From a virus (Duplodnaviria > Caudoviricetes), in the IMG/VR virus record IMGVR_UViG_3300020044_008128, positions 1-58,349 of that record: a DNA stretch of 58,349 nucleotides. One strand, given 5' to 3'. The stretch's first letter is position 1; each line of letters opens with the position of its first letter. The notes under the pieces were generated by a model that ran no database searches, was not told where the DNA came from, and saw nothing but the letters and a program-made list of their open reading frames with translations. A program made the position numbers and the translations under genes. Positions 9,589-29,890 of this stretch are shown one piece after another.

Positions 9589-11217
9589 ATGAAAACCATA
9601 GCTGTTGACTTTGAAACATCATATACCAAGGACAGGTCTATCTCCACTCATGGGACGTTGGGCTACCTATCGCACCCAGACACCGACATTTTTATGGTCG
9701 CACTTGCGAGCGAGGAGTTTACCTTCGTCGGACCTCCTATGGAGGCTCCTTGGGATTTGGTTCGCGGGAACCGCGTCATTGCACATAATTTTAGCTTTGA
9801 GGTCGCAGTGCTGCGGGAGTGTGAGCGGCGTGGGGTCATTAAAGAGCCTCTCAACGAAACGGGATTTTGCACAGCTAACCTTGCTGCCTATCTGCAAGCT
9901 CCGCGAAACCTCTTGGATGCCAGCCGTGAGTTACTCGGTATCCAGCTTGACAAATCTGCTCGCGACAAGTTCAAAAATAAGAACTACCACACCCTCCCCG
10001 AAGCAATCAAGGAGGAGATCAGAGGTTACTGCCTATCCGATGCCAAAGCCTGCTACACGATCTGGGAAAAGTATGCTCACCTCTGGCCTGAGCATGAGCA
10101 GCTTTTGTCTTGGCACACGACCATGATGGGTCATCGTGGCATCCCTGTGAATAGCGAAGCCGTTGATAACGGCATCCGTACCTACAAGGAAATCCTTTGG
10201 GGTTTGGAGAAGCTGATCCCGTGGGCTGGAACCAATCCTGTGCTGTCTTTGCCGCAACTGCGTGACGCTTGCCGTAAAGCAGGCATCCCTGCGCCAGAGA
10301 GCACTGCCAAGGACAGCGAAGAATTCCAAGTTTGGGCAGATACTTACGCCGACAAGGTTCCTTTCGTTGCTGCGGTAAGCCAGTATCGTTCTATCAATCG
10401 CTCTTTGGGGGTCTTGGAAGCCATGCAGGTTCGCACGCTGGACAACCGTGTGCGCTACGGGCTGAAGTATTGTGGTGCCGTTCCGACTTTCCGGTGGAGT
10501 GGCGACACGGGTCTCAACGTGCAGAACCAATCTCGCGAGCCTGTTGGCGGAATCGACATCCGCACCATGTTTGAGGCACCTGCTGGCAAGTCCTTTATCT
10601 CTGCAGATATGAGTCAGATTGAGCCTCGGGTTGCTCTTTGGGTGACGGGGAACACCCCGCAGCTTGATTTGGTTCGAGGTGGTATGTGCGTCTATGAGGT
10701 TCACGCTCGCCAAACGCTTGGCTACGACCTGTCTATCAGCCTTAAAGATGCGGCAAAAAAGGACGTGGCATACGCCAAGATGCGGCAATTCTCCAAGGCA
10801 AGGTGTTTGTCCGCAGACACCCTTGTTTTGACCCACAGAGGATATATTCCTATTTTGAAGGTTGAACTTACGGACAAATTGTGGGACGGTTATCAATGGG
10901 TTACTCATGATGGGGTGATCTACAAAGGAATCCAAAAAACTATTCGATATGAAACCGACACCTTTACCGAAGACCACAACTTGTACCTTGGAGAACACGA
11001 AAGAATCCAAGCAGGACAAGCGAAAGGGGAGCTTGCATTATCAGTGGCAAGGTACCGAACATCCACATCCTCTTGGTACGATGTTTGGGCATTGGCGTGT
11101 TGTGTCCTCAAAACTTACTCGCATCAATGGCTACCCCTACACAAACTTACTCTGCACCCACTGTGGGAGAGAGTTTGTTATTCTCTTGAAGAATGCCGAA
11201 AAAGGGCTAACCAATAG
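9589..11217 (+). CDS. polA: DNA polymerase family A, N-terminal fragment fused to N-intein
   Basis: Exo I IAVDFET, exo II AHN, motif A SADMSQIEPRV, motif B start RQFSKAR then intein block A CLSADTLVLT and block B TEDH. Confidence 0.92.
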   Translation: MKTIAVDFETSYTKDRSISTHGTLGYLSHPDTDIFMVALASEEFTFVGPPMEAPWDLVRGNRVIAHNFSFEVAVLRECERRGVIKEPLNETGFCTANLAAYLQAPRNLLDASRELLGIQLDKSARDKFKNKNYHTLPEAIKEEIRGYCLSDAKACYTIWEKYAHLWPEHEQLLSWHTTMMGHRGIPVNSEAVDNGIRTYKEILWGLEKLIPWAGTNPVLSLPQLRDACRKAGIPAPESTAKDSEEFQVWADTYADKVPFVAAVSQYRSINRSLGVLEAMQVRTLDNRVRYGLKYCGAVPTFRWSGDTGLNVQNQSREPVGGIDIRTMFEAPAGKSFISADMSQIEPRVALWVTGNTPQLDLVRGGMCVYEVHARQTLGYDLSISLKDAAKKDVAYAKMRQFSKARCLSADTLVLTHRGYIPILKVELTDKLWDGYQWVTHDGVIYKGIQKTIRYETDTFTEDHNLYLGEHERIQAGQAKGELALSVARYRTSTSSWYDVWALACCVLKTYSHQWLPLHKLTLHPLWERVCYSLEECRKRANQ

Positions 11218-11807
11218 TTGCTCAGAATGTAACGTAGTTTTACGAAACCTTGCGCGAAACTTTAAGAAGTGGGGGCGGGACATGGACGACAACGACAGGG
11301 TTCTTCAAGTGAGGTGGAACGCTATCCGGCATCGTTGTGAGAATTGCGCCTCCCCAAACTACCCCAACTATGGGGCGAGGGGAATCCGGCTTTCCCATGA
11401 GTTCCTTAGCGACGTAGCTTTTGTTGATTACTTAAAGTCGCTTCCCGACTGCCCTACTAAAGTCTCAAAACAACACACAATAGATCGCATCAACAATGAA
11501 AAAGGATATGAACGAGGAAACCTCAAGTTCTCAACTCACCAGCAGCAAATGCGGAATCTCCGCACAACTCAAAGGATCACACATGAAGGCAAAACTTACG
11601 ATGCTCGCACATTCGCTGAACTTTTTCTGCATCGGTGCCGCACGGCAACTGTTGTGCGCCTTGTTAGACAAGGCTTGTCAGCGGAGCAGATTATCCACAA
11701 GGATGCCACGGACCCCCACATCGGAAGACGCTGGACAACCTGTGTATGACATCCTGAACGCGGGACCAAGGCATAGGTTCTGTACACCTAGCGCAGTTGT
11801 CTCAAAT
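10804..11807 (+). mobile_element. Split intein with nested out-of-frame HNH homing endonuclease
   Basis: Intein begins at Cys codon 10804 (frame 1) and ends PVYDILNAGPRHRF...VVSN at 11807 (frame 3), followed by Cys+1. Confidence 0.85.
11081..11749 (+). CDS. HNH homing endonuclease (start uncertain, frame open from 10949)
   Basis: FGHWRV, CTHCG, SCSEC, WNAIRHRC..YPNYGARGI, TIDRINNEKGYERGNLKFST..QQMRN. Confidence 0.88.
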   Translation: MFGHWRVVSSKLTRINGYPYTNLLCTHCGREFVILLKNAEKGLTNSCSECNVVLRNLARNFKKWGRDMDDNDRVLQVRWNAIRHRCENCASPNYPNYGARGIRLSHEFLSDVAFVDYLKSLPDCPTKVSKQHTIDRINNEKGYERGNLKFSTHQQQMRNLRTTQRITHEGKTYDARTFAELFLHRCRTATVVRLVRQGLSAEQIIHKDATDPHIGRRWTTCV

Positions 11808-12371
11808 TGCCTTGGACTTGTGTATGGGCAGTACAGCAAAGGCTTCCAAGCCTACGCCAAGACCTTTGGGCTAGACATTACTTTAGAAGAAGCAGACCAC
11901 CAAGTTAAGCAGTATCGGGCTATGAACCCCTTGCTGACGAAGTTTTGGGCTTCTCTTGAGCTTGGCATGAAGCAGTCTAGGGGGCAGACTTTCTCAATAG
12001 AGTTGCCCAATGGTCGCTCCATGAATTACTTTGACGTAACCATTGGACGTAACGAGAAAGGTTTTCCCGACCTTCGCGCTCGCCCTGTGATGGGTGGGGT
12101 TCCTACCTATTATACCGCAGGGAAATTTTTTAATAATGTGTGCCAAGGAACGGCTCGGGACGTGTTTGCAGAGAAGATCACCGAGATCGAGTACAAGCTT
12201 GGGCTACCCGTGGTCCTAACCGTTCACGATGAAGTCTTAGTTGAAGTGGATGCCGCTGATGCCAAGGATGCCCAACGTGAAATCTCCAGAGTCATGGCAA
12301 CCGCTCCTGAATGGATGCCCGACATTCCCTTGGCCTCAGACTGTAACATCATGCAAGTTTATGAAAAGTAG
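11703..12371 (+). CDS. polA: C-intein fused to DNA polymerase A C-terminal fragment (start uncertain, 11496-11703)
   Basis: Intein blocks F/G then CLGLVYG (rest of motif B), NNVCQGTARD, motif C LTVHDEV. Confidence 0.9.
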   Translation: MPRTPTSEDAGQPVYDILNAGPRHRFCTPSAVVSNCLGLVYGQYSKGFQAYAKTFGLDITLEEADHQVKQYRAMNPLLTKFWASLELGMKQSRGQTFSIELPNGRSMNYFDVTIGRNEKGFPDLRARPVMGGVPTYYTAGKFFNNVCQGTARDVFAEKITEIEYKLGLPVVLTVHDEVLVEVDAADAKDAQREISRVMATAPEWMPDIPLASDCNIMQVYEK

Positions 12372-15055: not shown

Positions 15056-16201
15056 ATGACTACAGACACAATCACAATCAAAGGCAGAGAGTTCCACATG
15101 TTCAAAGAGCCAGCCACAGGTCGCTGGAGAGTGCGGAAGCGCACGGAAGACGTATACATTGACAAATCCACTGGCTGCACTGAACTGACCGAAGCCCGTC
15201 GCTGGGCCAAGGTCTATGTGGAGAAGGAACTTGGTAACGCTTATCGCTTGGCTACCGGAGGACATACTTTAGAAGAAGTTGTCCAAGCCTATCTGTCGTT
15301 CCCAAAACCTGTGCGCCAGTATGTGGCGGAAGCCAACGTGGCTCGCCTCCGCAACATCGTGCAGATTGCTATGGGCAAGGAACTCCACGAAGTCCGCGCC
15401 CGCGCCATCACCTACCGTCTTTGGGAGGATTTCATTGCCTTCAAGCATGGCGGCAAGATGGACTTGTCCACACCTCGACGGGAGAACATCAGCATCGTGG
15501 GTGCCGTCCGTTCTGCTTGTTCTATCTTCCCCAAGAAGCTGGATCACCGCTATGCCGAAGCAGGCATCAATCTGGACTTTGCCAATCTCCGCAGGGTTCC
15601 GTCTCTACCCACCTTGTCGGTAGCTCGTCATGCGTTGCCTGAAGGATGCCTTGGTTCCCTGATCAATGCTTGGAACTCCCTGAAGACTTCGGAATCCGCT
15701 TCTGATCGGGCTATCTATACTACTGTGGGTTTGGCTCTCTACGCAGGGCTTCGCTCCAGCGAGATTGCAGCCGCTCAGAAGCATTGGCTGACCTCCAGCG
15801 GCACTGAGATCAAGATTGTGCTCAAAGATCGCCCTGAGGAGGGCTTCCGCACCAAGACGGGTTCACAGGCTTTGGAGAACTCTTGGCTCAGTGGCTTGGT
15901 CATCGACCTTGGCTTCGCGTATCACTTGATGTCGCTGCCAGAAGGCAAGCTGGTTCAGTTCCCGCAGTCGTCTGAAGATTGGTTCTTCAACACGGTGGTC
16001 AACCGCTGGATTCGCCAATTCATCACCAAAGAGATGGATGGCAAAGGTCTGCATCGTCTGCGGGCTGAATACGCCAATGCGGTCAAACGCAAGTATGGTG
16101 ATCGTATCCTTGCCAACCAAGTTGGTATTGACGCAGCCCGACTTGCTTTGGGCCATGAAACTTCCGGCACTACATTGCGCCACTATTTGCAGACTCCGTA
16201 G
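15056..16201 (+). CDS. int: Tyrosine recombinase / integrase
   Basis: Catalytic set R (AGLRSSEI), K (RTKTG), HxxR (LHRLR), LGH, Y (RHY); N-terminal arm-binding-like KSTG..ELTEARR. Confidence 0.9.
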   Translation: MTTDTITIKGREFHMFKEPATGRWRVRKRTEDVYIDKSTGCTELTEARRWAKVYVEKELGNAYRLATGGHTLEEVVQAYLSFPKPVRQYVAEANVARLRNIVQIAMGKELHEVRARAITYRLWEDFIAFKHGGKMDLSTPRRENISIVGAVRSACSIFPKKLDHRYAEAGINLDFANLRRVPSLPTLSVARHALPEGCLGSLINAWNSLKTSESASDRAIYTTVGLALYAGLRSSEIAAAQKHWLTSSGTEIKIVLKDRPEEGFRTKTGSQALENSWLSGLVIDLGFAYHLMSLPEGKLVQFPQSSEDWFFNTVVNRWIRQFITKEMDGKGLHRLRAEYANAVKRKYGDRILANQVGIDAARLALGHETSGTTLRHYLQTP

Positions 16202-17602: not shown

Positions 17603-20600
17603 TCACTTGTAGCGGAGTTGTTTCTTGGCGTAGGCAGTGGCTTCCGTTCCGATGTTACCGAGTGCCTTGGAGGCGGAATCATCGTCCATTTTCTCCAACC
17701 TTGCAAGGTCACGAATCATTGCCTTCTTGATGAACTGCCCACGAACGGCAACGTAATCCTGCCAGTTGGAATCTGACATGACCCCGTTCTTGTTTTCAAG
17801 GGCAGTGCGTTGGGGCAGGCCGGGGGCAATCCCCCTATCCAGAATGAACCCGTAAACCTTCTTGTCGTTACCCGTAGGGGTTCCGGCAACCATGAGCGGG
17901 AAGCCTGCATACCAAGCACGTTCGTTGCCCTCAGTCCATGCGGAGGAAGGGTTCAAACCTTGGGGATCGCCAAGAGCATTGACAGCCCGCTCAGTGAGCA
18001 GGGATCGAGCAATTGGGAGGTTGAGGTAGAGAGAACCTTCACGCCCACGGAACCTGTCTCCGCCAGTCATCAGTTTTTCAACTGAAGAGATCAGACCCGA
18101 GAATGGGATGATGGGGTTGAGCTTGTAGAGAGCCGTTCCAAGAACCTTGGAATCAGGGTCAACTGCCAGAGTCGCTCCGATGGTGGATTTGGCACCAAAG
18201 AAGGCGGCTTGCTTGCTCCAGCCGGAGAGAACTGCTGACATATACTCCGAGAAGTATTGGGCAAACTCACCGTCGTTCTCTTTCCGGTTCAGGCGCATGT
18301 CGTCCATAGCCCCTACCATCAGGAGAGCAATCTTGAGCGGCTCCAAAGGCCCACGCATCACGTTTAGAGAGACGATCTTGTCTCCGACTCGCATTTCAAT
18401 GGAGCCTTGGCGATGCCCAGCTTTTTTCCAAGCATCAAGCTCAGTCTTATTGGTTGGGCCTGTCAGGGTAACATTGAAGAGGTCATCATCCTCATCATCA
18501 CTCAGGGCTTTGAGCGCCATGAGAATGGAGATTGCAGTTGTCCCAACGATGGCTTCCACTAAGCGTTGACGAATCTGCTCGTTGGTAGCCATCGACTGCT
18601 GGTAGAAAGGATTCGGGCCTACCAGCAAGTCTTTGCGGGCTTTGGCTGCAATCGCATACCGGATCAGACCATACGGGGTAAACCACATGGCTCGGTTAAG
18701 AAGGTTAGACGGAATACCAAAGTAACCAAGAAGCATACGCCCCACGATTGGGTGCTTTTTGATCACGTTATTCCCTGCCCCTTGAATGGCGTTCACGATG
18801 TTATTGATCACGTCCAAATTTGGAGAGTCCTCTCCGCGATGAACGCCCATCTCATAAGCAGATTCTTTTTCCACAAACTCAGGGAACTGGACATCTGGAA
18901 GGATGCCCTTGATAGCGGAGTTGATGTCGCGAGCCACATTGTCGCGGATTCGGATGTTGGATAGAGTGCGCTGAAGGCGGGCGGCACCCAGAGCCTGTTT
19001 AACAGCCGTGGCTTGAGACAACAGGTTGCCCTGCGATGCCCGTCGAATATCTCCACGGATGTCTTCTTCAAACTGGCGGGCTTCCACGGTCAGGTTAGCG
19101 TCCAAAGGAGCCGTAACCAGATCAAGGATTTTTGCCTTGGCATCTGGGAGTCCACGGAACCCTTCAATTGCGTTCTCGTAGCGGTGGAGAACACCGAGTT
19201 CATAAGCCAGCCTTGGGCCATAGACATTGGTGCCAGAGAATAGGATAGCTCTTACCTGTTGAATCTTGTTCTGATCCTGAACTCCTGCACGACGCATCAC
19301 CTCAAGGGCTTGAGTCTTTCGGAAGTAGTTGTCCATCATGGAGAACCAAACATGGTCAGTCGCCATGAGGACTCGGCGGGTAACGTCCGTGTAGGACTGC
19401 ACCACGATCATCCGAGCCTTGAGCTTATCAAACGCTGAAGTCTTTGGATCATTGATCTTCTGCAAAGCCTTTACCATTGGCTGCTGCAATGTAGTGGCAT
19501 TCATAATGACTCGCGACCAGTCATTGGTGTTAGCACCACCCGTGATACTGAACTTTACTTCCTGCCGGATGATGGAAGCTGTATCCTGTAACACCTTGAA
19601 GATGTCTTTGACCGCTTGGATGTCTCCGCGAGCGATTGCCGCACCCATGTCAATACCCACGCGAGTCATCAACGCTCCCATTGGGGCAATGATGTTGATG
19701 GCGAGAGTGCCAAGACCACTAAGAGCACTGTTGTTGTAAGAGATGGCAAGACGAGTCAAGAAGCCCATTTCGAGCTTCCGGCGAGCAAGAAGCTCATAGA
19801 GTTCCTTGACGGCAATAGCATAGTCGTGGACTCGCTGATCTGCCTTGGCTTGCGTGATCTTGAGATCGAGTTCACCAAAGGCTTTGTAGTCGCTCGGTTG
19901 CAGGTTCTCGTATCCAGCAGCCTTGGCAAAACTTTTGGTTGGGTCAAGTCGGTCTTTTCCAAGACCCATACGGATTAGCTTTTGCAGCTTCTCCACTTGC
20001 TTCTCCGCCACATTGACGTTGGTGTTCTCAGCTTTCTTCTTGAGTTCGGCCTGCTTGCGGCTGGAGATTTTGATCTCAAACTTCTCCATTGCCTTTACCT
20101 GAGCAGCTACCACATGCTCGTCAAAAGCCGCATCAATTGCCGCAGCAGAGTTGTCCGCAGCTTGTGAGGTATAACCATTGCGCTTCAGCCAAGACTTGAT
20201 GGCTTCAAGGCGTAGCTTTGGGTCGTTCTGAAGAGACGCATCAGAGGTGATGTAGTCAACCAAGACCCCCATCTTGGTCGTGGAAGTTTCCTCTCCTTTA
20301 CGAAGAGAACGCTCAGTCATTGCCAAGTCATAAAGACGATTGGCTTGAGCTTCCGTGGCACCAAAGGCAGCAGCTTGAGTGACAAACAATGGGCGAGTAA
20401 TATCAATGGCGACTAAGTTACGAACCAACTTACGGAGGGTTTCCGAAGGGGTAGGCTTGGCAGCATTGGTTGGCTGCTTGAGGTACTCCTCGTAATTCTT
20501 GATCAGGCGTTCATGGGTTTTATTGATGCTCTCCGAAGCGGCTTGATTCATCTTGGCAACGGTAGTCCCGAAGATGAGAGCTTTGTCCGCATCACTGAAC

Positions 20601-23600
20601 TCAGACATTGCACGGTCAAGTTCAGATGGGAGGATGCCACTGAGGGTTAGCACTTTCCGCAGCGCAGCATCCTGCCAAGCAGCATCATTGATGTCGGCTG
20701 GGTTAGCAGCTTTGATCTGGGAAACCAGAGTCTTGCGGCTACCCGCCAAGAGGGACTCCTTGGTACGGTCCAGCATCCTTTGGAGAGCCGCCTCCTTGCG
20801 GACCAAGTGCTCCCCATAAGTCGCCCTTGCCAGTTCTCCAGCAATTTTGGCAGGCACCTTCAAGGCTTCCACCAGAGGAGTCATGGCATCCACGAAGTCC
20901 TGTTCCTCCAGCTTCTTCTTGTTACGGAGAAACTCCTTTACAAGGGCTTTGAGCTTGACGGTATCCTCAGTCTTGAGGTTGTCCTGAACCTCTTTTTTCT
21001 TTAGGAACCTGTCCGTGATCTCCTCCGCTTCCTTCTCGGCATAGCGTGAAGATGTGCTCCATGCCGTAGCGATGAGTTCCTCCTTCACGGAGTCCTCAAT
21101 ATCAAAAGGTTCGAGTTCTTTGGCGAGATCATCCGCGAAGTACTTGAATACGGTGTGCTTCGGAGTGTTGGCGATGTTGGCGTCCACTGCCTTCTTGATG
21201 ATGGCGTAGATGGTCGGAGCCTTCTTTTCCTTGGAGTACTTCTTCTCCAAGAAGGCTTTGAGGTTGGCGAGGACAGCTTCCGCAGCCTTGGTGGCTTCGT
21301 TCTGGTTCTCCTCCTCTTTCACGTCCTCGACATCCTCCAAGTCTTCTACCTCGCCTTCGGAGGCAGTCGGGATATTGGGAGTTGGGGAAGTGACTTGGGG
21401 GGCAGGTTGTTTCGCGCCAAGAGCTTTGCCAAGCTCCTTGCCAAGCTTGGCGATTTTCTTTCTCGAATCGTCCATAGCTTTACGCACGTCCTCAATAGAC
21501 GCAAAAACCTCCAAAGGCTCTTCAAGGCCGAGATCATCAGAGAGGCTTTGGGCTGCGCTAGACGATGCCTTTTTCTCCTCCATGTCTTTTTCCAACTTCG
21601 CTAGCTTCCCAAGACGGAGGATTTCTTTGGTGTACTCCGACCACTTGCGCTTGATCTCGCCGCCCGTGAATTTGAGAGCTTCGGTGATGCGCTCAGCAAG
21701 ACCGTCCTGCGCTCCAACCTTGATACCCGAGACAGCCTTCTTCAGGTCTTCCAGAGCTTTGGCATCGAGTTCAGCGTTATTGATAAGCTCTTCCACAGAC
21801 CGGAGAGTATTCTCCGCATCCTCGACACCTTCCTCTTGGAGATGCTTGATGGCAGCGGCTTTGGCGGCTTGCTCCATCTTGTACATGGTATCCAAGATTT
21901 CCATCTTGTATGCGGAACGGGATTGGAGCAAACGACCCGCAGAAGAGTGGGTCAGGAAGGCACCCATGACGATGCCATTCCAGTTCTGGCGTAGCATCTC
22001 GAGCAAGCGAGAGTCCCCGTTACGAGCCATCTCAAGCCCCGCTTGGGTGAGCACCATCTGGAGAACCCCAGTAGCTGCGTCAGGTTTACCTTGTTGGTAG
22101 GTGAGGCCAAACGTGCTACCCCTTGCCGTAAGCTGTGTGGCGACTCCAAGGAGGCGATCCACATCATCTTTGCCCACAACCGGACGACCTTTGTCGGAGT
22201 CCAGTCGGAGGTACTCATACGCCAAGCTCTCGGAAGCTGCGATGGACTGCACATCCGCGATGGAGCCTTCCAAGCCGAGAATCTGGGAAAACTTCAATCC
22301 CAGCTCTGGGTTTGCCTCTTTATAGGCTTTCAAAGAGGCTTTCTCCTCGTCATTGTAAGGACTCAGGAGATTGGTTGGAGCATCTGGCAGCGAACCAAGG
22401 TCAGGAGTGGATTCACGGATGTCCGATACTGCTGCGACTGGTTTTTCCATCACTCGAAAACTGTGTTCTCCCACCAGTTCAAGCCCCGAGCGACGAGCAT
22501 ACCTTGAAAATAAAGCTGACTTTCGCGGACTGTTAGCTACAAAAGTATAGGTCACTCCGGGATTTTTTCGAGAATGGATTCGGAGAAGTTGCTCCAAATA
22601 GGGCATCAGAGCGTTCATTGTTTTGAAAGCTCCTTTACCGACGGACTCTCCAATACTGTCCGCCACTGAAAAATGAACAGAGTTGTCTTTCCCTATCATT
22701 ACCGAAGCAACAGTATCCCCAAGCATGAATCGACGATGAATAGATCCATTTTCTTCGTAAATAGTATTGTTGGGCTTGCCCCTATTGCCCGTTTGCAAGA
22801 AAATAGGAAGCCCATATTCGCCTACAGCGAAGGGAACTTGATTCATCGCCTGACTTTGTTCCTTAGTGGCTTTATTATCCTTATCACCAGTGAACTTCGC
22901 CCAATGGGCTTCATAAGCCTCCGTGGAGTTTTCAGGCAGTCCTTCCGGAACTGGGTAATCAACCCCAAGTTGTTGAGCATCAGACAGTCTTTTGCTCGTT
23001 TCTTTGTCCACCGGGGCAACTGATTGGGAGCCACCCTGCGCCCGCTCAGTGAACTTGGCGGCGTTGATAGCCTTGATGAAAATCTGGCCCATGTCTTCCA
23101 AATGCTCATCTGGAATTTGAGCGGACTGTGGCAGACCAAGGGCAGAGTTGATGAAGGACTTCACCCAGCGGAGGAACTTCTGGAGCTTGGTCTTTTCTAC
23201 AAACGAAAGGCTTCCTTTGCGAACAAACAAACCTTCAATCTGGCGAACAAACACTTCTTCCATCGCCTTTTCCTTCACATCCATATCTGTGCGCCAGTTG
23301 GCATAGGCACGATAGCCGGAGACTTTTACCAAACGCTCAATCTGTGCCTCGGTGACATACTCCGAAATCATGGATAACCATGAAGCATGGAGCAGCTTAT
23401 CGGTGCTGTTACGAATGACGGCTGTGCCGTGGTGCATCAACTCATGGAGGATGGTGGATGCTGCGGCAATGTCAGCATTCTTGTGGAAGATAGTCTGCTT
23501 CACCTGATCAATGATGACCACCACTTTACCATTGCTGTAGTAGCCCTGTGCGCCACTGCGGACACTGGCTCTCTCGGCAGGGGTAAGGGACTCGTCTGCA

Positions 23601-26600
23601 AGAAGTTCCGCAGAGGTTGCAAGGCGAACCATGCGACCTGCCATAGGGATCAGTTTGGCAATCAAGGCCAGACCGTTCTTGGCATTCTGTTCGGTGATGC
23701 CGCCAACAATTTTCCCAGCAGGAGGTTGAGTACTTAGATTAAGGCTGTTGGTATTTCCAACTTGGGCTGCAAGACCTCCAACGGGTGGGGTGTCTGGAAT
23801 CCGCTCTATCTCCACGACTTTACCTGTGCTCAGATTGGCTACCCAGTCTTGATTTACAATCTTGTCCGCAGCAATAGTAACCTCCCCACGAACTAGCATG
23901 TTCATGCTGTTGAGGCGTTCGCCCACGCGAGAAGCCAATCCGGCTTCATTGAAGAGATTGTTGGCGAATAACCAGAAGCCGCGAGCAACACTGGTCATGC
24001 CATAGCGAACTGTTCGACCTGCAACCTGTTCCACTTCAGAGGCTCTCCAAGGAAGGTTGAGCATGATTTGGGTGCGCGGATACTTGCCACCCTCACTCGT
24101 ATCGTGGAGGGACAAGCCCGTGCCTCCGCGAGCCATCGTGGCGACCATGATAGGGGCAGGGTTTGGAGAGTCTGGATTCTCCCAGCGGCTCAGAGAGTCT
24201 TGTCCAACTTTTCCTGCTTCGTCGCCAGTGTAGAAAACCACCTGATCCCCAAAGGCTTTCTTGAACTTATCTTGGGCGGACTCAAAGTTGATGCTACCCA
24301 CCCCCTGTTCAATCAGGTTGCGGAACATCTCGATCACGCCGGGGAGATTTGGAACGCCCTCCGGCACCACGAACTGGGCATCACGGTTGACCGCTTTAGC
24401 TGCAAGATACTCGGCTTGCGCGGCATCCCACTTCTCCACGATCTCCACCAAGTTGCGATCACTCTCAGACTTAGTTTCCACAAAGATCACCACCTGACGA
24501 CCTTCGGCAGCTTCTTTACGAGCCAAGTCAATGGCGGCATTGGCTTTAGATGCTTCCAAGATGCGCTTGAGAATGTTGGTGTAGAAACCCTTGTCGTTAG
24601 ATGATGGCTTCTCAACCTTATCAAAGGCAGTCTTGATCTCATCGGCTAGCACACTCCATTCAGCGGAGCCTTTGACCCCTTGGAAAGTAGCTTCTGACAT
24701 GCCATCAGGAATGCGAGCACTGCGCTGAGAGAACATGCCGTTCTTCCGCAGAAACTCGCGGGCATAGAGTTGCCCTGCCTTTTTATCAGCAGGAGTCATC
24801 TTGTCAAAGTCCAAGGAGGACGGCTTACCATCACGTTGCAGCACCTTGGCTCCAGCGATAGCCGCGAAGTTGTACCAACCGTCATCAAACAGCCCACGCA
24901 CTTCTCTCAAGGAGTCAAAGACTCCAGTAGCCTTGAGATACTCCATCTGTTCAATGGATTCATACGGGGTAGCAGTAGTGAGAAGTGTAAACTTTGCTTT
25001 ACTCATCCACTCCGCAGCTTTCTTGGAACGGGAAGAGGTATCGCTCAAGCCGTAGCGGACTTCATGCGCTTCATCAAAGATCAGAACATCCGAATCGGAA
25101 GGCACATACTTGGTGCTGTCGTCCAGATTGGAGTAGGTCATAAACTCGATATTTTGCACTTCAGGGAAGTTGGCAAAATCTTCTTTGACCTGAGCAATGA
25201 GTTCCTGACTACGGGTAACAAATACAATCCGTCCTTCAGGATTCCGGCTGCGGATATTGGCAAGAGCCGAACCCATCACGAAGGTCTTTCCTGTGCCTGC
25301 GCTGGAGGCAAGCAGATACATCGGCTTCCCATCGGCTTGAGCTTTGGAAATCAGCATGGAGTCCCACTGCTGTTCTTCCAAGGCTTGGGAAGGAATCGAC
25401 ACTTTTCCACCTTTAACGGCTTCTTGGCCCAATGCTCGATTCAGGGCACTCTTGAAGAACTCAAAAACCTTGGTGGTCATGTAAGACCTAGCCGTTTTAC
25501 CCGCTGGAGGCTCGCTCTGATTCTCCTGATCCGCCAGCTTCTTGCGCTGCTCCTTCCTGATCTTGTTGATCTTGGAAGCCACAACAGCTTCGTTGCCAAC
25601 AGCGGTGCCGTAGGCTTCATCCGAGATGTTGTGCGCCAACTCAACCACACGGGCATAAGTCTTGCTGACCCAGCCCTTTTGGTTGTCGTAGGAGAAGCCA
25701 TTGGAAACCAAGGCAGCTTTTCCACGCTCCGTAGCGGCTTCACCTTTGGTAGCGATGGCAATTGATCCATCCGGCAGGGTTGTGGCAACGAAGCCAGCAG
25801 CGTTGATGTTGGTTAGCGCATCCGGCAGCTTCTCCTCAAACTTCTTGCGCTCAGAGGCAACCTCTGACTCGCTCATGGCTTGCTCTTTCTTGTAGGCTTT
25901 GTACTCCTCGGTCTGAGAAATCAAGTCACGCAGTTTGTTAATCTGCTCGGTAGTTTCCGCATCAGCGTTGGCGAGAGCAGCAGGCTCAAAGATGGTCTTG
26001 AGGAGGTATTCAGGTTTGAGTCCAAACACTTCGGCAACCGTTTTTCTGCGCTGCTTCCCAAAACCCATTTTCTCTTTCAGAGTCTCGATACTGAGCTTCC
26101 CATTGATAGGCTCGGTTACTGGCTCTTCTTCGATGGTTGGAGTGACTTCCGTGGGCTGCGCCGACTTCGTGGCAGCAGCAACTTCCGTGGCTTGAGCTAC
26201 TTTCGTGGGTTTCACCGACGTTGTGGCGGGAGCGACTTCGGTAGCCTCCATCTGGGCAATCAGCTTTCTTGCTTCTCTCGGCAAAGGGGCTTCCTCAAGC
26301 TCCTCATTGTTAAGGGCAAGCTGATTCCAGACTCCAGAAAGGTAGTCTTTGACGTTATCCCAAAGATCGGGGAACTGATCCCGAACGTCTTGAGCAAAAT
26401 CAGTGAACTTCACAGCCCCGGTTTCAGCGGAGATTTTTGCGAGTTCAAAAGCCGCAGCGAATTGCTCGGAGTCCAAGCCAGCCATACTGGTTCTCCCCAA
26501 AGATTTCCTGAACTTGTCCGCAGCCGCTTGTCTCCGCTTTGCCAAGTCATCAAGTTTTTCTTGGGTGACTTCTTTTCGGGCAAGTCGAGACTTCTGTCTT

Positions 26601-29600
26601 TCAGTTAGCTGTGGAGCCTCCGTGGGCTGCGCCGACTCCGTGGCGGGCGCAACTTCCGTGGCTGGCGCAACTTCCGTGGCTGGCTTCTCCGCAGCAGGTA
26701 TCTCCATCTTGCCTTGATCCTGCTCGGCTTTTCCTGCGCGGGTAGCCGCACCAAGTTCAGCAAGCAAGTCGGGAGCCTGTGGCTTTGCTGTTTCCCCTTT
26801 GTTCTTGGGGCGAGTGGATTGGGTTCCCTCAAGGAGACTTTCAAGCCCAGCTTGTTTCTTGGGAGTCGCTACCTTGGTTACATAGAAAGGCTCTTCCAAA
26901 CTGGCCTTCTGCTCCCCAAAGGTAGGGCTGGTTAAGACGACTCCGACAGGGGTTCCATCCGCCTCGTCATAGGTGATTTCTGTGACAGTAAATTCTTCGC
27001 CCAAGATGGTGTATTTTTTACCAACAACAACCGCAGAGGAAACGATACGCTCTTTATCCTCGGCGGGAGTAGTGACAGCTTCCTCGAAAGCCAAGGTCTG
27101 TTTCTCCTGCTCGTCCATCACTGCTTGTTGTTGGTCTGCAATGCTTCCGGCTTTGCGCTCCTTGCTGGCTTTGACCATCGCCTCAATCAAGGCATCCGCA
27201 TTTGGTGCGGAGATGAAGTTCGCCTCAAACGCTAAATTGGCAACAACATCAATCGTGTTGGAGTCAAAGGGCATCGTGTCCGAAACCGTCCAAAGTTTGG
27301 CTTTCTCCCCTTCATCAAGCTCAACATCCCGTAAAGGGTCGCGTTCTCCGCCAACGGATTTCCCAGCTTTTTTCTCAGCAGCTTTGAACTTTGCACTCGG
27401 CACAACCATGTCCGAATCAGCCACAAAATTGAGGATGTCGGGCTGCTGCGTATTGGGGTTGTCTGAGAAGCGGGAAGTTTTGCGGTAGCTTTTTGGCTTC
27501 TCGACGGGGGCTTCCTTTTCCTTCCGAACAGAAATTGTCTCCCCCTTTTTGAGAGTGTTAGCAATCTTGTTGGCAAACACCTTACCAAACTTGTCCGCTA
27601 GGGAGCCAATGGCAAACTCATTTTGCAGAGCTTCCAAGGAGAGATAACTGGCTTTGTAAACTCGCCCATCACTTTCACGGTGCTGCCATTCAACATTCCC
27701 ATTGGGGAGCATCTTTGCCGTGTACTCTTCGGGGATAGCCATTTTACCCTTGGGGACGACAGCCTTCTTAGCCTCGGGCGCGGGGGCTACTTCCGCCACC
27801 ACTGGAGCGGTAGCAGGTGTCGCCAAATCCTTGGCGATCTTTTTGGCGGCATTCTTTGCTGGGGTGAGGTTCCCAAATTCCTGAACAAACTCTCCCGCCG
27901 CATTATAGATGGCATAGAAGTTCTTGGCTTTGGGGTTAGCACGGCTTGGTTCCTGCTTGATCACGCCCACTTGGGCGCGCCCAACCATGATCTTTTGATC
28001 TTGCGCTGTTCCAGCAGGGCGAGGCTTGGTATCTGCAACAATTTTGACTTCCTCAGAAGGAGCCACCTCTGTAACCCGAACAGTCGGAGCCTGTGCGGGC
28101 CTAGCCATGACGGTAGGCTTGGCGGCAACTCTGGTGGTAGTGACGGCTTTCCTTTCGGGAGCTACTGTTTCCTCAAATGGTTGTCCTTCGATAGGTTGGG
28201 CTTCTATCGTTTCGCTAGAACTTGGCGTAACGCGACCACTACTGGGGGCCGAGTCTTGGGCTGTGGGGGCGGGTATGCTGCTTGGAAGATCACTTTGAAT
28301 TTTGGCATTTGGGGCGGGGAGCGGGGTTTCATCCTCGTATGGTTGCCCTTCGATAGGTGGGGCTTCTACTACATCATTGGCGGCACGCACAGCTTCTGCT
28401 TTACGCACTTGCTCCTCATAGGCGCGAATAGCCGCCGCTTTTGCCTCTTGGAATTTGTCTTCTTCAGTAGGCACATAGAACTCCTGCCCTTCAATCGGAG
28501 GAGCTTCCGCTGGAGTAGCAGCCGCTTCCACGGCAGTCTGCACCAAAGCATTCTGAACCTGCGGGGCATTTGCATCTGCTAAAGCTGCGGCAGTTGCAGC
28601 AATCTCTTCCGCCTTGGCTTTCTGGGCTTTGACGTATTGATCTTTGGCAAGACCAACCAAGCCAGCACCGCCACCCATGAGAGCAGAACCAAAGAGTGTA
28701 GCGGGAGCAATCTCCTCAAACCCTTTAGCGATGCCAGCGGCTCCGGCATACGGGTTGGCAACTTCATCTGGATTCTTGCCTGCCAGAATAGCTTCCATCT
28801 TGGCTTGATCCCAGCCTTGCCCACCGACCTGAGTAGCGGTTTCGCCTGCGAGTTCTACGCCAACGTCGGCGGCAACCAAACCTGCTTTGGTGAGCGCTCG
28901 TTTTGCCAAAGTGGTGGCGACTTCCTTGCCAATATCTTTGAAGAGGAGCTTGCCAACGCCCATTGTGAACACGTTGCCAATAGCTTCTGGGCCTGCTTCC
29001 CACAGAGCAGTATTCTTGGCAATCGGGAGAAGTTGGGCGTGGAGAGCTTTCTCTTCGTCTTTGTCCAGAGGGCGACCCTTTTCCTGAACGGACTTTTCGT
29101 TTGCCAGCGCGAAGGCATCGTCCAAGAAGGAAGCCCCTGCCATGCGGTAGGCAGCGGCTCCAGAAGAAGCCAAGCCTCCAATAATACCTACGGCGGTGCC
29201 AATAGCGGAGCCAGCGACTGCGCCGGGGGCCACGCCAACACCACCAGCGGGAGCCGTAGCTGCTCCGCCAATAGCGGCACCAATAGGCAAGCCTGCGGCT
29301 TCGCCAGCAGCCCCACCAAGAGCAGCGGCTCCCATCGCAACACCGGAGAAACCAGAACTGTTGCTGAACTCGCGTCCAGCACTTCCAACTGAAGTCGCCA
29401 ATCCTTGAGCTTCGCGTTGAGCTTGATCCGCTTGAACGGCTTCGTCAGCCGCCTTCTTCTCCGCCATAGCATCTCGGTAGCCTTGGGAACGCTCGCTGGG
29501 CATAGCCAAGCCTTCCTTGAGTTGGTAGGCAGCAGCCTTGACATTGGTGGGCAGGTTACTGGCAATGGTGCCAAGAGCGTTGAGGGTATCTCCAAAACCA

Positions 29601-29890
29601 AAGAAGGGACGGTCTGCCTTCTCCTTAGCTTGGGCATCAACTTCCTGTTGAGCTTTCTGCTGGGCATACGTCTTGACGTAATCACCCATATTTTCAGGCA
29701 TCGGAGCACCTGCGAAGAACTTGTGCTTGGCATCAGCAATAGCTTCAACTGCGAGCTTTTCTTCAGGCGTTTTAGCCTGCTCGATCACCTGCTGTGACCA
29801 CCCCGACAACACCTTGGACTTCTGCTCTGGAGCTAGCTCCTGAAAGGTAGGGTTCGACTCGATTTCATTCCAAAGGGGAGGAGTAGCCAT
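17603..29890 (-). CDS. Giant (4095 aa) polyvalent internal virion/ejection protein with SF2 (strawberry-notch/DarB-like) helicase and zincin-like domain
   Basis: SSAGTGKT, LIFDEAH, TATP, GGTGLSLHD, QVAGRTVR; ILHELMHH; Gly/Ala hydrophobic N-terminal segments; long helical C-terminus. Confidence 0.8.
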   Translation of the reverse strand: MATPPLWNEIESNPTFQELAPEQKSKVLSGWSQQVIEQAKTPEEKLAVEAIADAKHKFFAGAPMPENMGDYVKTYAQQKAQQEVDAQAKEKADRPFFGFGDTLNALGTIASNLPTNVKAAAYQLKEGLAMPSERSQGYRDAMAEKKAADEAVQADQAQREAQGLATSVGSAGREFSNSSGFSGVAMGAAALGGAAGEAAGLPIGAAIGGAATAPAGGVGVAPGAVAGSAIGTAVGIIGGLASSGAAAYRMAGASFLDDAFALANEKSVQEKGRPLDKDEEKALHAQLLPIAKNTALWEAGPEAIGNVFTMGVGKLLFKDIGKEVATTLAKRALTKAGLVAADVGVELAGETATQVGGQGWDQAKMEAILAGKNPDEVANPYAGAAGIAKGFEEIAPATLFGSALMGGGAGLVGLAKDQYVKAQKAKAEEIAATAAALADANAPQVQNALVQTAVEAAATPAEAPPIEGQEFYVPTEEDKFQEAKAAAIRAYEEQVRKAEAVRAANDVVEAPPIEGQPYEDETPLPAPNAKIQSDLPSSIPAPTAQDSAPSSGRVTPSSSETIEAQPIEGQPFEETVAPERKAVTTTRVAAKPTVMARPAQAPTVRVTEVAPSEEVKIVADTKPRPAGTAQDQKIMVGRAQVGVIKQEPSRANPKAKNFYAIYNAAGEFVQEFGNLTPAKNAAKKIAKDLATPATAPVVAEVAPAPEAKKAVVPKGKMAIPEEYTAKMLPNGNVEWQHRESDGRVYKASYLSLEALQNEFAIGSLADKFGKVFANKIANTLKKGETISVRKEKEAPVEKPKSYRKTSRFSDNPNTQQPDILNFVADSDMVVPSAKFKAAEKKAGKSVGGERDPLRDVELDEGEKAKLWTVSDTMPFDSNTIDVVANLAFEANFISAPNADALIEAMVKASKERKAGSIADQQQAVMDEQEKQTLAFEEAVTTPAEDKERIVSSAVVVGKKYTILGEEFTVTEITYDEADGTPVGVVLTSPTFGEQKASLEEPFYVTKVATPKKQAGLESLLEGTQSTRPKNKGETAKPQAPDLLAELGAATRAGKAEQDQGKMEIPAAEKPATEVAPATEVAPATESAQPTEAPQLTERQKSRLARKEVTQEKLDDLAKRRQAAADKFRKSLGRTSMAGLDSEQFAAAFELAKISAETGAVKFTDFAQDVRDQFPDLWDNVKDYLSGVWNQLALNNEELEEAPLPREARKLIAQMEATEVAPATTSVKPTKVAQATEVAAATKSAQPTEVTPTIEEEPVTEPINGKLSIETLKEKMGFGKQRRKTVAEVFGLKPEYLLKTIFEPAALANADAETTEQINKLRDLISQTEEYKAYKKEQAMSESEVASERKKFEEKLPDALTNINAAGFVATTLPDGSIAIATKGEAATERGKAALVSNGFSYDNQKGWVSKTYARVVELAHNISDEAYGTAVGNEAVVASKINKIRKEQRKKLADQENQSEPPAGKTARSYMTTKVFEFFKSALNRALGQEAVKGGKVSIPSQALEEQQWDSMLISKAQADGKPMYLLASSAGTGKTFVMGSALANIRSRNPEGRIVFVTRSQELIAQVKEDFANFPEVQNIEFMTYSNLDDSTKYVPSDSDVLIFDEAHEVRYGLSDTSSRSKKAAEWMSKAKFTLLTTATPYESIEQMEYLKATGVFDSLREVRGLFDDGWYNFAAIAGAKVLQRDGKPSSLDFDKMTPADKKAGQLYAREFLRKNGMFSQRSARIPDGMSEATFQGVKGSAEWSVLADEIKTAFDKVEKPSSNDKGFYTNILKRILEASKANAAIDLARKEAAEGRQVVIFVETKSESDRNLVEIVEKWDAAQAEYLAAKAVNRDAQFVVPEGVPNLPGVIEMFRNLIEQGVGSINFESAQDKFKKAFGDQVVFYTGDEAGKVGQDSLSRWENPDSPNPAPIMVATMARGGTGLSLHDTSEGGKYPRTQIMLNLPWRASEVEQVAGRTVRYGMTSVARGFWLFANNLFNEAGLASRVGERLNSMNMLVRGEVTIAADKIVNQDWVANLSTGKVVEIERIPDTPPVGGLAAQVGNTNSLNLSTQPPAGKIVGGITEQNAKNGLALIAKLIPMAGRMVRLATSAELLADESLTPAERASVRSGAQGYYSNGKVVVIIDQVKQTIFHKNADIAAASTILHELMHHGTAVIRNSTDKLLHASWLSMISEYVTEAQIERLVKVSGYRAYANWRTDMDVKEKAMEEVFVRQIEGLFVRKGSLSFVEKTKLQKFLRWVKSFINSALGLPQSAQIPDEHLEDMGQIFIKAINAAKFTERAQGGSQSVAPVDKETSKRLSDAQQLGVDYPVPEGLPENSTEAYEAHWAKFTGDKDNKATKEQSQAMNQVPFAVGEYGLPIFLQTGNRGKPNNTIYEENGSIHRRFMLGDTVASVMIGKDNSVHFSVADSIGESVGKGAFKTMNALMPYLEQLLRIHSRKNPGVTYTFVANSPRKSALFSRYARRSGLELVGEHSFRVMEKPVAAVSDIRESTPDLGSLPDAPTNLLSPYNDEEKASLKAYKEANPELGLKFSQILGLEGSIADVQSIAASESLAYEYLRLDSDKGRPVVGKDDVDRLLGVATQLTARGSTFGLTYQQGKPDAATGVLQMVLTQAGLEMARNGDSRLLEMLRQNWNGIVMGAFLTHSSAGRLLQSRSAYKMEILDTMYKMEQAAKAAAIKHLQEEGVEDAENTLRSVEELINNAELDAKALEDLKKAVSGIKVGAQDGLAERITEALKFTGGEIKRKWSEYTKEILRLGKLAKLEKDMEEKKASSSAAQSLSDDLGLEEPLEVFASIEDVRKAMDDSRKKIAKLGKELGKALGAKQPAPQVTSPTPNIPTASEGEVEDLEDVEDVKEEENQNEATKAAEAVLANLKAFLEKKYSKEKKAPTIYAIIKKAVDANIANTPKHTVFKYFADDLAKELEPFDIEDSVKEELIATAWSTSSRYAEKEAEEITDRFLKKKEVQDNLKTEDTVKLKALVKEFLRNKKKLEEQDFVDAMTPLVEALKVPAKIAGELARATYGEHLVRKEAALQRMLDRTKESLLAGSRKTLVSQIKAANPADINDAAWQDAALRKVLTLSGILPSELDRAMSEFSDADKALIFGTTVAKMNQAASESINKTHERLIKNYEEYLKQPTNAAKPTPSETLRKLVRNLVAIDITRPLFVTQAAAFGATEAQANRLYDLAMTERSLRKGEETSTTKMGVLVDYITSDASLQNDPKLRLEAIKSWLKRNGYTSQAADNSAAAIDAAFDEHVVAAQVKAMEKFEIKISSRKQAELKKKAENTNVNVAEKQVEKLQKLIRMGLGKDRLDPTKSFAKAAGYENLQPSDYKAFGELDLKITQAKADQRVHDYAIAVKELYELLARRKLEMGFLTRLAISYNNSALSGLGTLAINIIAPMGALMTRVGIDMGAAIARGDIQAVKDIFKVLQDTASIIRQEVKFSITGGANTNDWSRVIMNATTLQQPMVKALQKINDPKTSAFDKLKARMIVVQSYTDVTRRVLMATDHVWFSMMDNYFRKTQALEVMRRAGVQDQNKIQQVRAILFSGTNVYGPRLAYELGVLHRYENAIEGFRGLPDAKAKILDLVTAPLDANLTVEARQFEEDIRGDIRRASQGNLLSQATAVKQALGAARLQRTLSNIRIRDNVARDINSAIKGILPDVQFPEFVEKESAYEMGVHRGEDSPNLDVINNIVNAIQGAGNNVIKKHPIVGRMLLGYFGIPSNLLNRAMWFTPYGLIRYAIAAKARKDLLVGPNPFYQQSMATNEQIRQRLVEAIVGTTAISILMALKALSDDEDDDLFNVTLTGPTNKTELDAWKKAGHRQGSIEMRVGDKIVSLNVMRGPLEPLKIALLMVGAMDDMRLNRKENDGEFAQYFSEYMSAVLSGWSKQAAFFGAKSTIGATLAVDPDSKVLGTALYKLNPIIPFSGLISSVEKLMTGGDRFRGREGSLYLNLPIARSLLTERAVNALGDPQGLNPSSAWTEGNERAWYAGFPLMVAGTPTGNDKKVYGFILDRGIAPGLPQRTALENKNGVMSDSNWQDYVAVRGQFIKKAMIRDLARLEKMDDDSASKALGNIGTEATAYAKKQLRYK
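26148..26685. repeat. Direct repeats encoding TEVAPA/SAQPTE units within giant gene
   Basis: TCCGTGGGCTGCGCCGACT at 26148-26166 and 26619-26637; tandem 18-bp units GGCGCAACTTCCGTGGCT near 26647-26685. Confidence 0.8.

Follow-up and report, generated by a model that had tools for sequence, protein, structure and literature searches.

The stretch of DNA analyzed here, hereafter the window, is a complete virus record of 58,349 nucleotides (nt) (IMG/VR IMGVR_UViG_3300020044_008128; Duplodnaviria, Caudoviricetes; GC content 51.9%). Between positions 9589 and 12371 it carries a family A DNA polymerase gene that is broken in motif B by a putative split intein and an HNH-like endonuclease gene. Direct reading of the open reading frames (ORFs) bore out the 3 same-strand ORFs in series, in frames 1, 2, and 3, that an initial annotation of the sequence had placed there (Table 1). 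The frame 1 ORF, with GTG 9553 as its longest start, ATG 9589 as its homology-based start, and the stop TAG at 11215-11217, reads ...MRQFSKAR/CLSADTLVLT, with the codon of Cys1 at 10804. The open stretch of frame 2, 10919-11749, contains ATGs at 10949 and 11081 and overlaps both other ORFs. Frame 3 opens at 11484 after a stop at 11481-11483, ends at 12371, and reads ...PVYDILNAGPRHRFCTPSAVVSN/CLGLVYG (longer reading ...VYDILNAGPRHRFCTPSAVVSN/CLGLVYG), with the +1 Cys at 11808. Frames 1 and 3 are both closed over 11218-11483, so no single indel can rejoin the polymerase, as that annotation had also held. Given a predicted start at ATG 11703, the C-intein begins 47 nt before the 3' end of the endonuclease gene, and the overlap between the N-intein ORF and the endonuclease gene is 137 nt in the window.

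Table 1. Parts of the interrupted polymerase locus in the window
Feature	Position	Strand	Evidence and remarks
DNA polymerase A N-extein, 405 amino acids (aa): 3'-5' exonuclease and polymerase domain to motif B (...MRQFSKAR)	9589..10803	+	PHROG 17, E 9e-43
N-intein, 137 aa plus stop TAG	10804..11217	+	Core 10804-11080 (~92 aa), Cys1, block B T55-x-x-H58
N-intein tail, 45 aa, overprinted on the endonuclease gene	11081-11214	+	Codon-position wobble
Putative free-standing HNH-like (beta-beta-alpha-metal type) homing endonuclease gene, 222 aa, frame 2	11081..11749	+	PHROG 374/3377/2081; predicted start ATG 11081
C-intein, ~35 aa, frame 3 (MPRTPTSEDAGQPVYDILNAGPRHRFCTPSAVVSN)	11703..11807	+	Block F Asp/His, terminal Ser-Asn; start codon predicted
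DNA polymerase A C-extein, 187 aa plus stop, from the +1 Cys of motif B (CLGLVYGQ...) through motif C	11808..12371	+	Pfam DNA_pol_A, E 4e-10; PHROG 17, E 7e-27

The PHROG 17 and Pfam DNA_pol_A matches of both polymerase pieces upheld the reading of a family A polymerase broken at motif B, and the N-extein start at ATG 9589 agreed with the N-termini of relatives. The N-extein aligned gap-free to residues 1-405 of P0007, a contiguous 592-aa relative (88% identity), and the C-extein aligned gap-free to its residues 406-592 (93% identity). The P0007 junction, RQFSKAR-CLGLVYGQ (RQFSKARCLGLVYGQ; ...IRQFSKARCLGLVYGQ...), is exactly the predicted ligation product, and the claim that joining the exteins restores motif B was thereby confirmed. 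The residue at the +1 position was Cys in all split alleles seen; among intein-free alleles it was Val or Ile in 21 rows, Thr in 3, and Cys only in P0007 and P0023. These 2 intein-free contiguous 592-aa polymerases with KAR-CLGL may have arisen from the split allele by precise loss, or may be the target of its homing. Among annotated phage records, the region had no blastn match, and at the protein level the N-extein found only SPO2/phiFL4A-type polymerases of ~25% identity.

The same motif-B site, interrupted in the same order of frames f, f+1, f+2, was identified in 4 other independent loci (L083, L084, L003, and L004), that is, in 5 of 5 loci with the window (WIN) included, and the 4 others share the frame offsets at 55-83% nt identity. 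WIN and L083 (~83% nt identity) aligned over 2,145 nt with no gap, as did L003 and L084 (75% nt identity) over 2,148 nt. Contigs of 2 other public sequencing runs covered 10711-11900 with 103 substitutions and 0 gaps and 11000-11900 with 70 substitutions and 0 gaps, and 2 further runs held short, near-identical, gap-free pieces of the stretch. Across the 5 motif-B loci, the overlap between the N-intein ORF and the endonuclease gene ranged from 137 to 209 nt, and a start codon (ATG in 4 loci, TTG in 1) stood 31-35 codons upstream of the +1 Cys in every case.

Searching a large protein collection with the N-fragment returned 3 classes of relatives: N-fragments, intein-free polymerases, and proteins with a contiguous intein. 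The N-fragments were 541-599 aa long, matched at 93-98% query cover with identity from 92% down to 35% (16 aligned), and ended after the N-intein; N-fragments of equal length were called in many samples, and C-fragments were likewise called as separate proteins. The intein-free polymerases were about 592 aa long and up to 88% identical. Scans of viral and metagenome contigs with the N-intein alignment yielded 373 and 488 relatives, of which 80 loci were kept from each; a first scan of viral contigs with the single N-extein sequence had given one poor locus only. The 3-frame arrangement is a genuine, conserved feature rather than an assembly error.

We counted substitutions by codon position (1/2/3) in 2 independent pairs of loci, WIN-L083 and L003-L084. 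In WIN-L083, the third-position excess lay in frame 1 across the N-extein (0.09/0.07/0.35) and the N-intein core (0.17/0.14/0.35). Over the N-intein tail, the rates were 0.30/0.11/0.04 when read by frame 1 and 0.11/0.04/0.30 by frame 2; frame 2 also showed wobble in the endonuclease-only stretch (0.15/0.11/0.31) and over 11484-11702 (0.07/0.03/0.19), where frame 3 gave 0.03/0.19/0.07. Frame 3 took over after the endonuclease stop (0/0/0.50, from substitution counts of 0/0/10) and continued so through the C-extein (0.09/0.03/0.48). Both the N-intein tail and 11484-11702 thus wobbled by frame 2 only, and L003-L084 repeated the pattern, with the switch to frame 3 falling inside the endonuclease gene's final 44 nt (frame-3 rates of 0.20/0.20/0.36). 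Wobble in frame 1, then 2, then 3 places all 3 genes under purifying selection, and the unconstrained N-intein tail and frame-3 head support a C-intein of about 35 aa. This length had been proposed in the initial annotation, and it stood: the wobble moves to frame 3 some 31-35 codons before the +1 Cys, where all 5 loci have their start codon, and only the last ~35 residues on the C-intein side are conserved across cis-splicing relatives. The functional parts are therefore the ~92-aa N-intein core with its 45-aa unconstrained tail, the 222-aa endonuclease, and the ~35-aa C-intein.

The chance expectation of open frames was obtained by synonymous resampling of the endonuclease ORF. Openness of the frame-3 head was expected by chance (P 0.12-0.35 in the 5 loci) and that of the frame-1 tail was mildly unusual (P 0.008-0.084), whereas a whole endonuclease gene open in another frame was unexpected (-1 frame, P ≤0.0004; +1 frame, P 0.0006-0.044). 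Longer intein halves, comprising the frame-3 head (MKEET..., LL.ALL.K) and the frame-1 tail (SSWxDVWxLA), were considered and rejected as overprints of the endonuclease motifs YERGN, YDAR, and MFGxW with unconstrained wobble: the DNA of frame-1 SSWxDVWxLA also encodes endonuclease G.MFGxW, and that of frame-3 M(K/N)EET and ML(A/V) also encodes YERGN and YDAR. A likeness of the tails to the linker of the cis inteins at site c was dropped on account of the same overprinting.

The window keeps the intein nucleophiles, with Cys at 10804, Asn at 11805-11807, and the +1 Cys, and it carries block B as T55-E-D-H58 and block F as VYDILNAGPRHRF. In 40 diverse contiguous members of the intein family, C1, T55, H58, D102, and N121 were invariant, the +1 Cys was at least 90% conserved, and the linker had no conserved column. 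All family-invariant catalytic residues are present in the window, and both halves match the family hidden Markov models (HMMs). The family includes natural contiguous mini-inteins that lack an endonuclease, and one of these, the 122-aa mini-intein of L113, served as a stand-in for the window halves in structure prediction. Its fold, predicted from a 40-sequence alignment, reached a pLDDT of 94.4 (predicted score in the local distance difference test) and a predicted template modeling (pTM) score of 0.86; an earlier fold from 5 sequences was too weak (pLDDT 59.8). All 27 Foldseek matches of the L113 model at E ≤0.001 were intein/HINT splicing domains, among them NpuDnaE (the best, with a template modeling [TM] score of 0.79) and Ssp DnaE, at TM 0.78-0.80, as well as DnaB, gp41-1, RecA, and NrdJ-1.

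The endonuclease matched PHROG families named 'HNH endonuclease' at E 8e-26 to 1e-13, and the HMM matches of relatives begin at the Met of ATG 11081. Its family motifs are an N-terminal FG..V.S, a CxxC...CxxC zinc ribbon, RCxNP...YGGRGI, and IDRIDNxGxYEPGNLR..T..EN..N. The window protein has an N-terminal FG-W-V motif, the CxxC...CxxC zinc ribbon, and an IDRINNEKGYERGN...N core, reading I-D-R-I-N..G-Y-E-R-G-N...N, in which R136, Y143, and N147 are invariant in the family. Sub-threshold profile matches fell exactly on the catalytic cores of PacI (E 0.1, also Asp-Arg) and I-HmuI (E 0.3). In a protein atlas, the endonuclease fell among viral clusters whose nearest named neighbors were NUMOD-type families (scores 0.85-0.92). 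Searches of Pfam and NCBIfam gave no GIY-YIG or Vsr match, and a single-sequence search of solved chains gave a CD-NTase match at chance level only, which was discarded. Homologues were found by tblastn in 627 phage records, with a single match of at least 80% query cover in 96, and many of the best matches were annotated as free-standing 'HNH endonuclease' genes. As for the annotation's intact HNH nuclease overlapping both intein halves, the overlap stood, while the HNH label comes from the PHROG families, with no Pfam or NCBIfam match. By its sequence the protein is HNH-like, and a homing activity and target are presumed for it.

The 161 loci and the window together yielded 139 distinct intein instances, which we sorted by layout. 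In 116 of the 139 (contiguous inteins), the host ORF was open through the intein; a homologous endonuclease was nested within these at +1 in 76 and at +2 in 25, proportions that favor +1 cases because the retrieval pattern SSWxDVWxLA is an out-of-frame reading of the endonuclease start, although most contiguous loci match the N-intein model only to about position 72-85 and were probably retrieved by the other pattern. No contiguous intein had the endonuclease nested in frame, and in 15 none was found. The remainder comprised 7 instances split as f / f+1 / f+2, one with an in-frame stop between halves lying in one frame (L114), one mini-intein near the host C-terminus flagged by the length rule only (L009), and 14 that ran off the locus. 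The 7 split instances are the 5 motif-B loci, L018 (...YTKDLLNR/C), and L030 (...AHTGRFGG/C), so that the split form occurs at no fewer than 3 insertion sites. The f / f+1 / f+2 splits at the 2 other sites lie at L018:4004-5226 and L030:1287-4015 (=L136); L030 has small overlaps, and its C-intein frame becomes open just ~46 nt ahead of the endonuclease stop. In L114 (372-1598), the N- and C-intein share one frame with an in-frame stop at about 774-776 and the endonuclease at +1, and this could be a split by nonsense mutation, a case of read-through, or an error. Single polymerase ORFs with 2 family inteins, some with 2 nested endonuclease genes in different frames, were observed in L035 (nested genes at +2 and +1), L009, L011, L030, L133, and L158.

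Where an open host ORF encloses an out-of-frame endonuclease, as in 101 contiguous relatives, the endonuclease must be translated independently. The N-intein core was also identified in 183 annotated cultured-phage records, with the listed matches mostly under polymerase genes; Salmonella phage records with the core numbered 137. All 4 cultured records examined harbored a nested out-of-frame endonuclease, at +1 in APSE-1, Caulobacter RW, and Streptococcus Javan113 and at +2 in Salmonella ST3. Of these 4, only the APSE-1 record annotates the nested gene (P46 inside P45); in Caulobacter phage RW (L164), Salmonella phage ST3 (L165), and Streptococcus phage Javan113 (L166), one polymerase coding sequence of ~960-1,030 aa is annotated, and the nested, unannotated endonuclease was found by HMMs at E 1e-32 to 1e-60. 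The window may be the split end-member of a very large, unrecognized family of inteins in phage family A polymerases in which the endonuclease is always a separate overprinted gene and never fused, a view to which we give even odds. Were it true, out-of-frame nesting would be a stable and common solution in which the host ORF is read through and the endonuclease retains a start and stop of its own. On its 5' side the f / f+1 / f+2 form has the +1 layout and on its 3' side the +2 layout, and in such a family the split form may arise by recombination between the 2 layouts.

For the window, we consider a natural split intein that splices in trans, of the class of 'fractured' genes, the best explanation, with a probability of about 85% judged from sequence and predicted structure. 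A mobile unit, composed of the intein and a separate homing-endonuclease gene, would sit at the codon of the first residue after ...KAR in motif B. Gene 1 would produce the N-part of the polymerase fused to the ~92-aa N-intein core and the unconstrained tail of 45 aa; gene 2, shifted by one base, would produce the free-standing HNH-like endonuclease from its own internal start; and gene 3, shifted by one more base and beginning ~47 nt ahead of the endonuclease stop, would produce the ~35-aa C-intein fused to the C-part. The 2 intein pieces would associate as a HINT fold and splice in trans, with Cys1 and the +1 Cys as nucleophiles and cyclization of the terminal Asn, yielding a 592-aa polymerase that reads RQFSKAR-CLGLVYG. 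The endonuclease would cut intein-free alleles and so spread the whole unit. We infer the start codons, the splicing, and the activity and target of the endonuclease as parts of this explanation.

Several results weigh against this explanation. The predicted fold is that of the relative L113. No Pfam intein/Hint domain was found in the N-fragment at E ≤0.1, and the N-intein profile matched no solved chain at E ≤1; sequence models fail to reach so divergent an intein family. Next to the terminal Asn, the window and L083 have Ser instead of His, while the other 3 motif-B loci and 5 further C-fragments keep His-Asn. The initial annotation had called the Ser-Asn ending atypical, but it is ordinary within the family, where 18 of 39 diverse contiguous members have it. 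For the endonuclease, 0 of 33 family members matched a Pfam HNH or relevant NCBIfam model at E ≤0.01, and the core has Asp-Arg where HNH enzymes have Asp-His, so that the enzyme could lack activity or act in another way. More than one C-intein start is conceivable, with further in-frame ATGs upstream at 11496, 11508, 11583, and 11601. None of the 3 internal starts is preceded by a Shine-Dalgarno site; yet across the whole window only 4 of the 38 ORFs of at least 200 aa have a Shine-Dalgarno-like motif upstream, a sparsity that suggests a host with Shine-Dalgarno-independent initiation. Among the public sequencing runs listed as matches, the best shared 10% of the words of the stretch, and none was an RNA run.

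Of the other explanations, the one that survives best, though improbable, is that the halves are made separately and are not spliced, either as a non-covalent 2-piece polymerase held together by the intein halves or as a dead gene. The split NrdA of phage Aeh1, which works without an intein, would be a parallel. Fractured genes that work unspliced are on record (discussion in Dassa 2009, PMC2677866), and the change of the penultimate His to Ser in the window would agree with lost splicing. However, strong purifying selection on both exteins shows that the gene is not dead, and Cys1, TxxH, the block F Asp, the terminal Asn, and the +1 Cys are all retained. The presence of Cys at +1 in every split allele, against mostly Val or Ile in intein-free ones, fits splicing chemistry better than mere docking, and the 18 of 39 contiguous members that also end in Ser-Asn must splice to give a working polymerase.

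A second alternative, put forward in the initial annotation, is that 2 programmed +1 ribosomal frameshifts, from frame 1 to 2 near 11081-11215 and from frame 2 to 3 near 11484-11747, produce one polypeptide with a cis-splicing intein and an in-frame endonuclease domain. Both shifts would indeed be +1, and the overlaps give room for them, but we judge this very unlikely. The frame-1 stop lies 137, 140, 159, 161, and 161 codons from Cys1 in the 5 loci, so there is no conserved site for a shift at the stop, and by eye no slippery or stall motif was apparent around 11075-11090. Independent translation of the endonuclease is required in the 101 contiguous relatives anyway, and the split variant needs nothing more; moreover, all 5 loci have a frame-3 start codon 31-35 codons before the +1 Cys. 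Finally, the idea that a contiguous cis intein with an in-frame HNH domain was broken into 3 frames by 2 indel errors in metagenome assembly, which the annotation had named as its refuter and to which the window's origin as a metagenome-assembled virus record and the 10% word share of its best-matching public run lend some color, is hardly credible and is excluded by the gapless pairs and the 0-gap contigs of 2 other runs that cross both junctions (2 more cover parts), alongside the identical offsets in 4 independent assemblies, the wobble that tracks each frame in turn, the equal-length N-fragments, and the finding of an in-frame endonuclease in 0 of 101 endonuclease-bearing contiguous relatives.

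To see how split and intein-free alleles are distributed, a maximum-likelihood tree was built from 35 N-exteins (17 split and 18 intein-free rows); junctions were found in 49 of 120 listed N-fragment matches, and the tree left out 8 rows not fitting the 2 junction patterns (P0007 and P0023 among them) and rows with another upstream intein. The 2 kinds of allele were interleaved, with 10 changes by parsimony and at least 7 forced by well-supported branches, and sister pairs such as P0022/P0042 and P0011/P0021 were less than 0.04 substitutions per site apart, some sister pairs even less than 0.03. Shuffled labels gave a mean of 12 changes, so the intein state is barely clustered. Such a patchy pattern is consistent with repeated gain through homing, with precise loss, or with both. 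Polymerase relatives of about 900 aa carried contiguous inteins elsewhere, at 'FNN/C...ASN/CCQG' in P0005, P0015, and P0033 and at 'SGDxGxN/C...TGN/CQN' in P0026, P0031, P0094, and P0095, the last having both sites. This polymerase clade is an intein hot spot with at least 3 insertion points.

The fractured genes described by Dassa 2009 (PMC2677866) are the closest known kind. They are split inteins whose halves flank a free-standing homing endonuclease gene, for example gp41-1, NrdJ-1, and IMPDH-1; their listed host enzymes are gp41, IMPDH, DnaE, NrdA, NrdJ, ligase, and terminase, and their endonucleases are GIY-YIG or Vsr-like, fracturing by HNH enzymes being only predicted. As in those genes, a phage replication enzyme in the window is broken by a split intein with the endonuclease gene between the halves on one strand, the 3' end of the endonuclease gene overlaps the C-intein start (47 nt in the window vs 6-69 bp in theirs), and the split falls at the usual endonuclease insertion point, leaving an N-intein core of ~92 aa and a C-intein of ~35 aa. 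The initial annotation's appeal to this precedent was right in kind, but the details differ: the host enzyme is a family A DNA polymerase, the endonuclease is HNH-like rather than GIY-YIG or Vsr-like, and the N-intein and endonuclease overlap by 137 nt where the published cases have a non-coding spacer of 27-51 nt. The N-intein ORF runs into the endonuclease gene, resulting in 3 genes in 3 successive frames.

Out-of-frame endonucleases inside contiguous inteins were reported in 2025-26 and called rare, with endonuclease VII-like, LAGLIDADG, or Vsr-like enzymes, in 3 sources (Gosselin, Arsenault & Gogarten, bioRxiv 10.1101/2025.01.02.630785; Phillips et al., bioRxiv 10.64898/2026.09.14.751524; ShiLan element, PMC11855218). 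The window resembles these in having a separate same-strand endonuclease gene out of frame with intein and extein, and its endonuclease is kin to free-standing phage enzymes, which in those systems are thought to have invaded the intein. Unlike them, where the host ORF is open and the intein splices in cis, the window has a broken host ORF with halves in 2 frames. Out-of-frame nesting, rare in those papers, is the rule in the window's family (101 of the 116 contiguous inteins), whose enzyme belongs to another type. The intein of APSE-1 polymerase P45 with its nested P46 (NC_000935.1) belongs to the same family as that of the window (N-intein core E 9e-19, whole-intein profile E 5e-61), and P46 belongs to the same endonuclease family (E 1e-32), is nested at +1 on the same strand, and lies in a family A polymerase. 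Intein loss has been noted among APSE phages (PMC7313666), and the APSE intein, like the window element, is present or absent among close relatives. It differs from that of the window in being contiguous, in its polymerase lineage, and in sequence (~39% identity over the N-intein core).

With the Npu and Ssp DnaE split inteins, the window element shares the HINT fold as seen in the family model, the same split loop, a ~35-aa C-intein, and the features of a class 1 intein with Cys1 and a +1 Cys. In contrast, sequence similarity to them was not detectable in the Pfam and solved-chain profile searches. The DnaE halves are encoded at distant loci and are not known to have an endonuclease gene between them. 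Our search of the literature found no family A polymerase with a split intein. What is new in the window is the host enzyme, the type of endonuclease, and the large extent of the overlaps.

If the explanation by trans-splicing holds, the window would add a new host enzyme, a family A polymerase interrupted inside motif B, and a new endonuclease type to the natural split inteins and fractured genes, and the diverged natural split pairs, ending in His-Asn or Ser-Asn, would be candidate orthogonal trans-splicing parts. The relatives show the intein and the homing endonuclease as 2 separate, overlapping genes that are common in phage polymerases, which bears on how inteins acquire endonucleases and on the origin of split inteins. 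It also bears on annotation, as records of cultured phages mostly lack the nested gene and give the polymerase as a single protein of ~1,000 aa. The separate, overprinted endonuclease across the family is a more interesting lead than the window's split itself.

Elsewhere, the window harbors a replication module (helicase, exonuclease, and the polymerase described here), an integrase-like gene, and a gene for the large terminase subunit. A scan for promoters and terminators was at chance level (4 vs 2.8±1.9 and 3 vs 3.8±2.0). On the minus strand, a 4,094-aa ORF at 17603-29890 had no PHROG match at E ≤1e-5, and neighboring ORFs of 1,026 and 1,074 aa (34580-37663 and 39762-42989) matched only PHROG 5490, of unassigned function. 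The integrase-like ORF (15056-16201, plus strand; PHROG 1, E 3e-8) lies just downstream of the replication genes, so the phage may be temperate.

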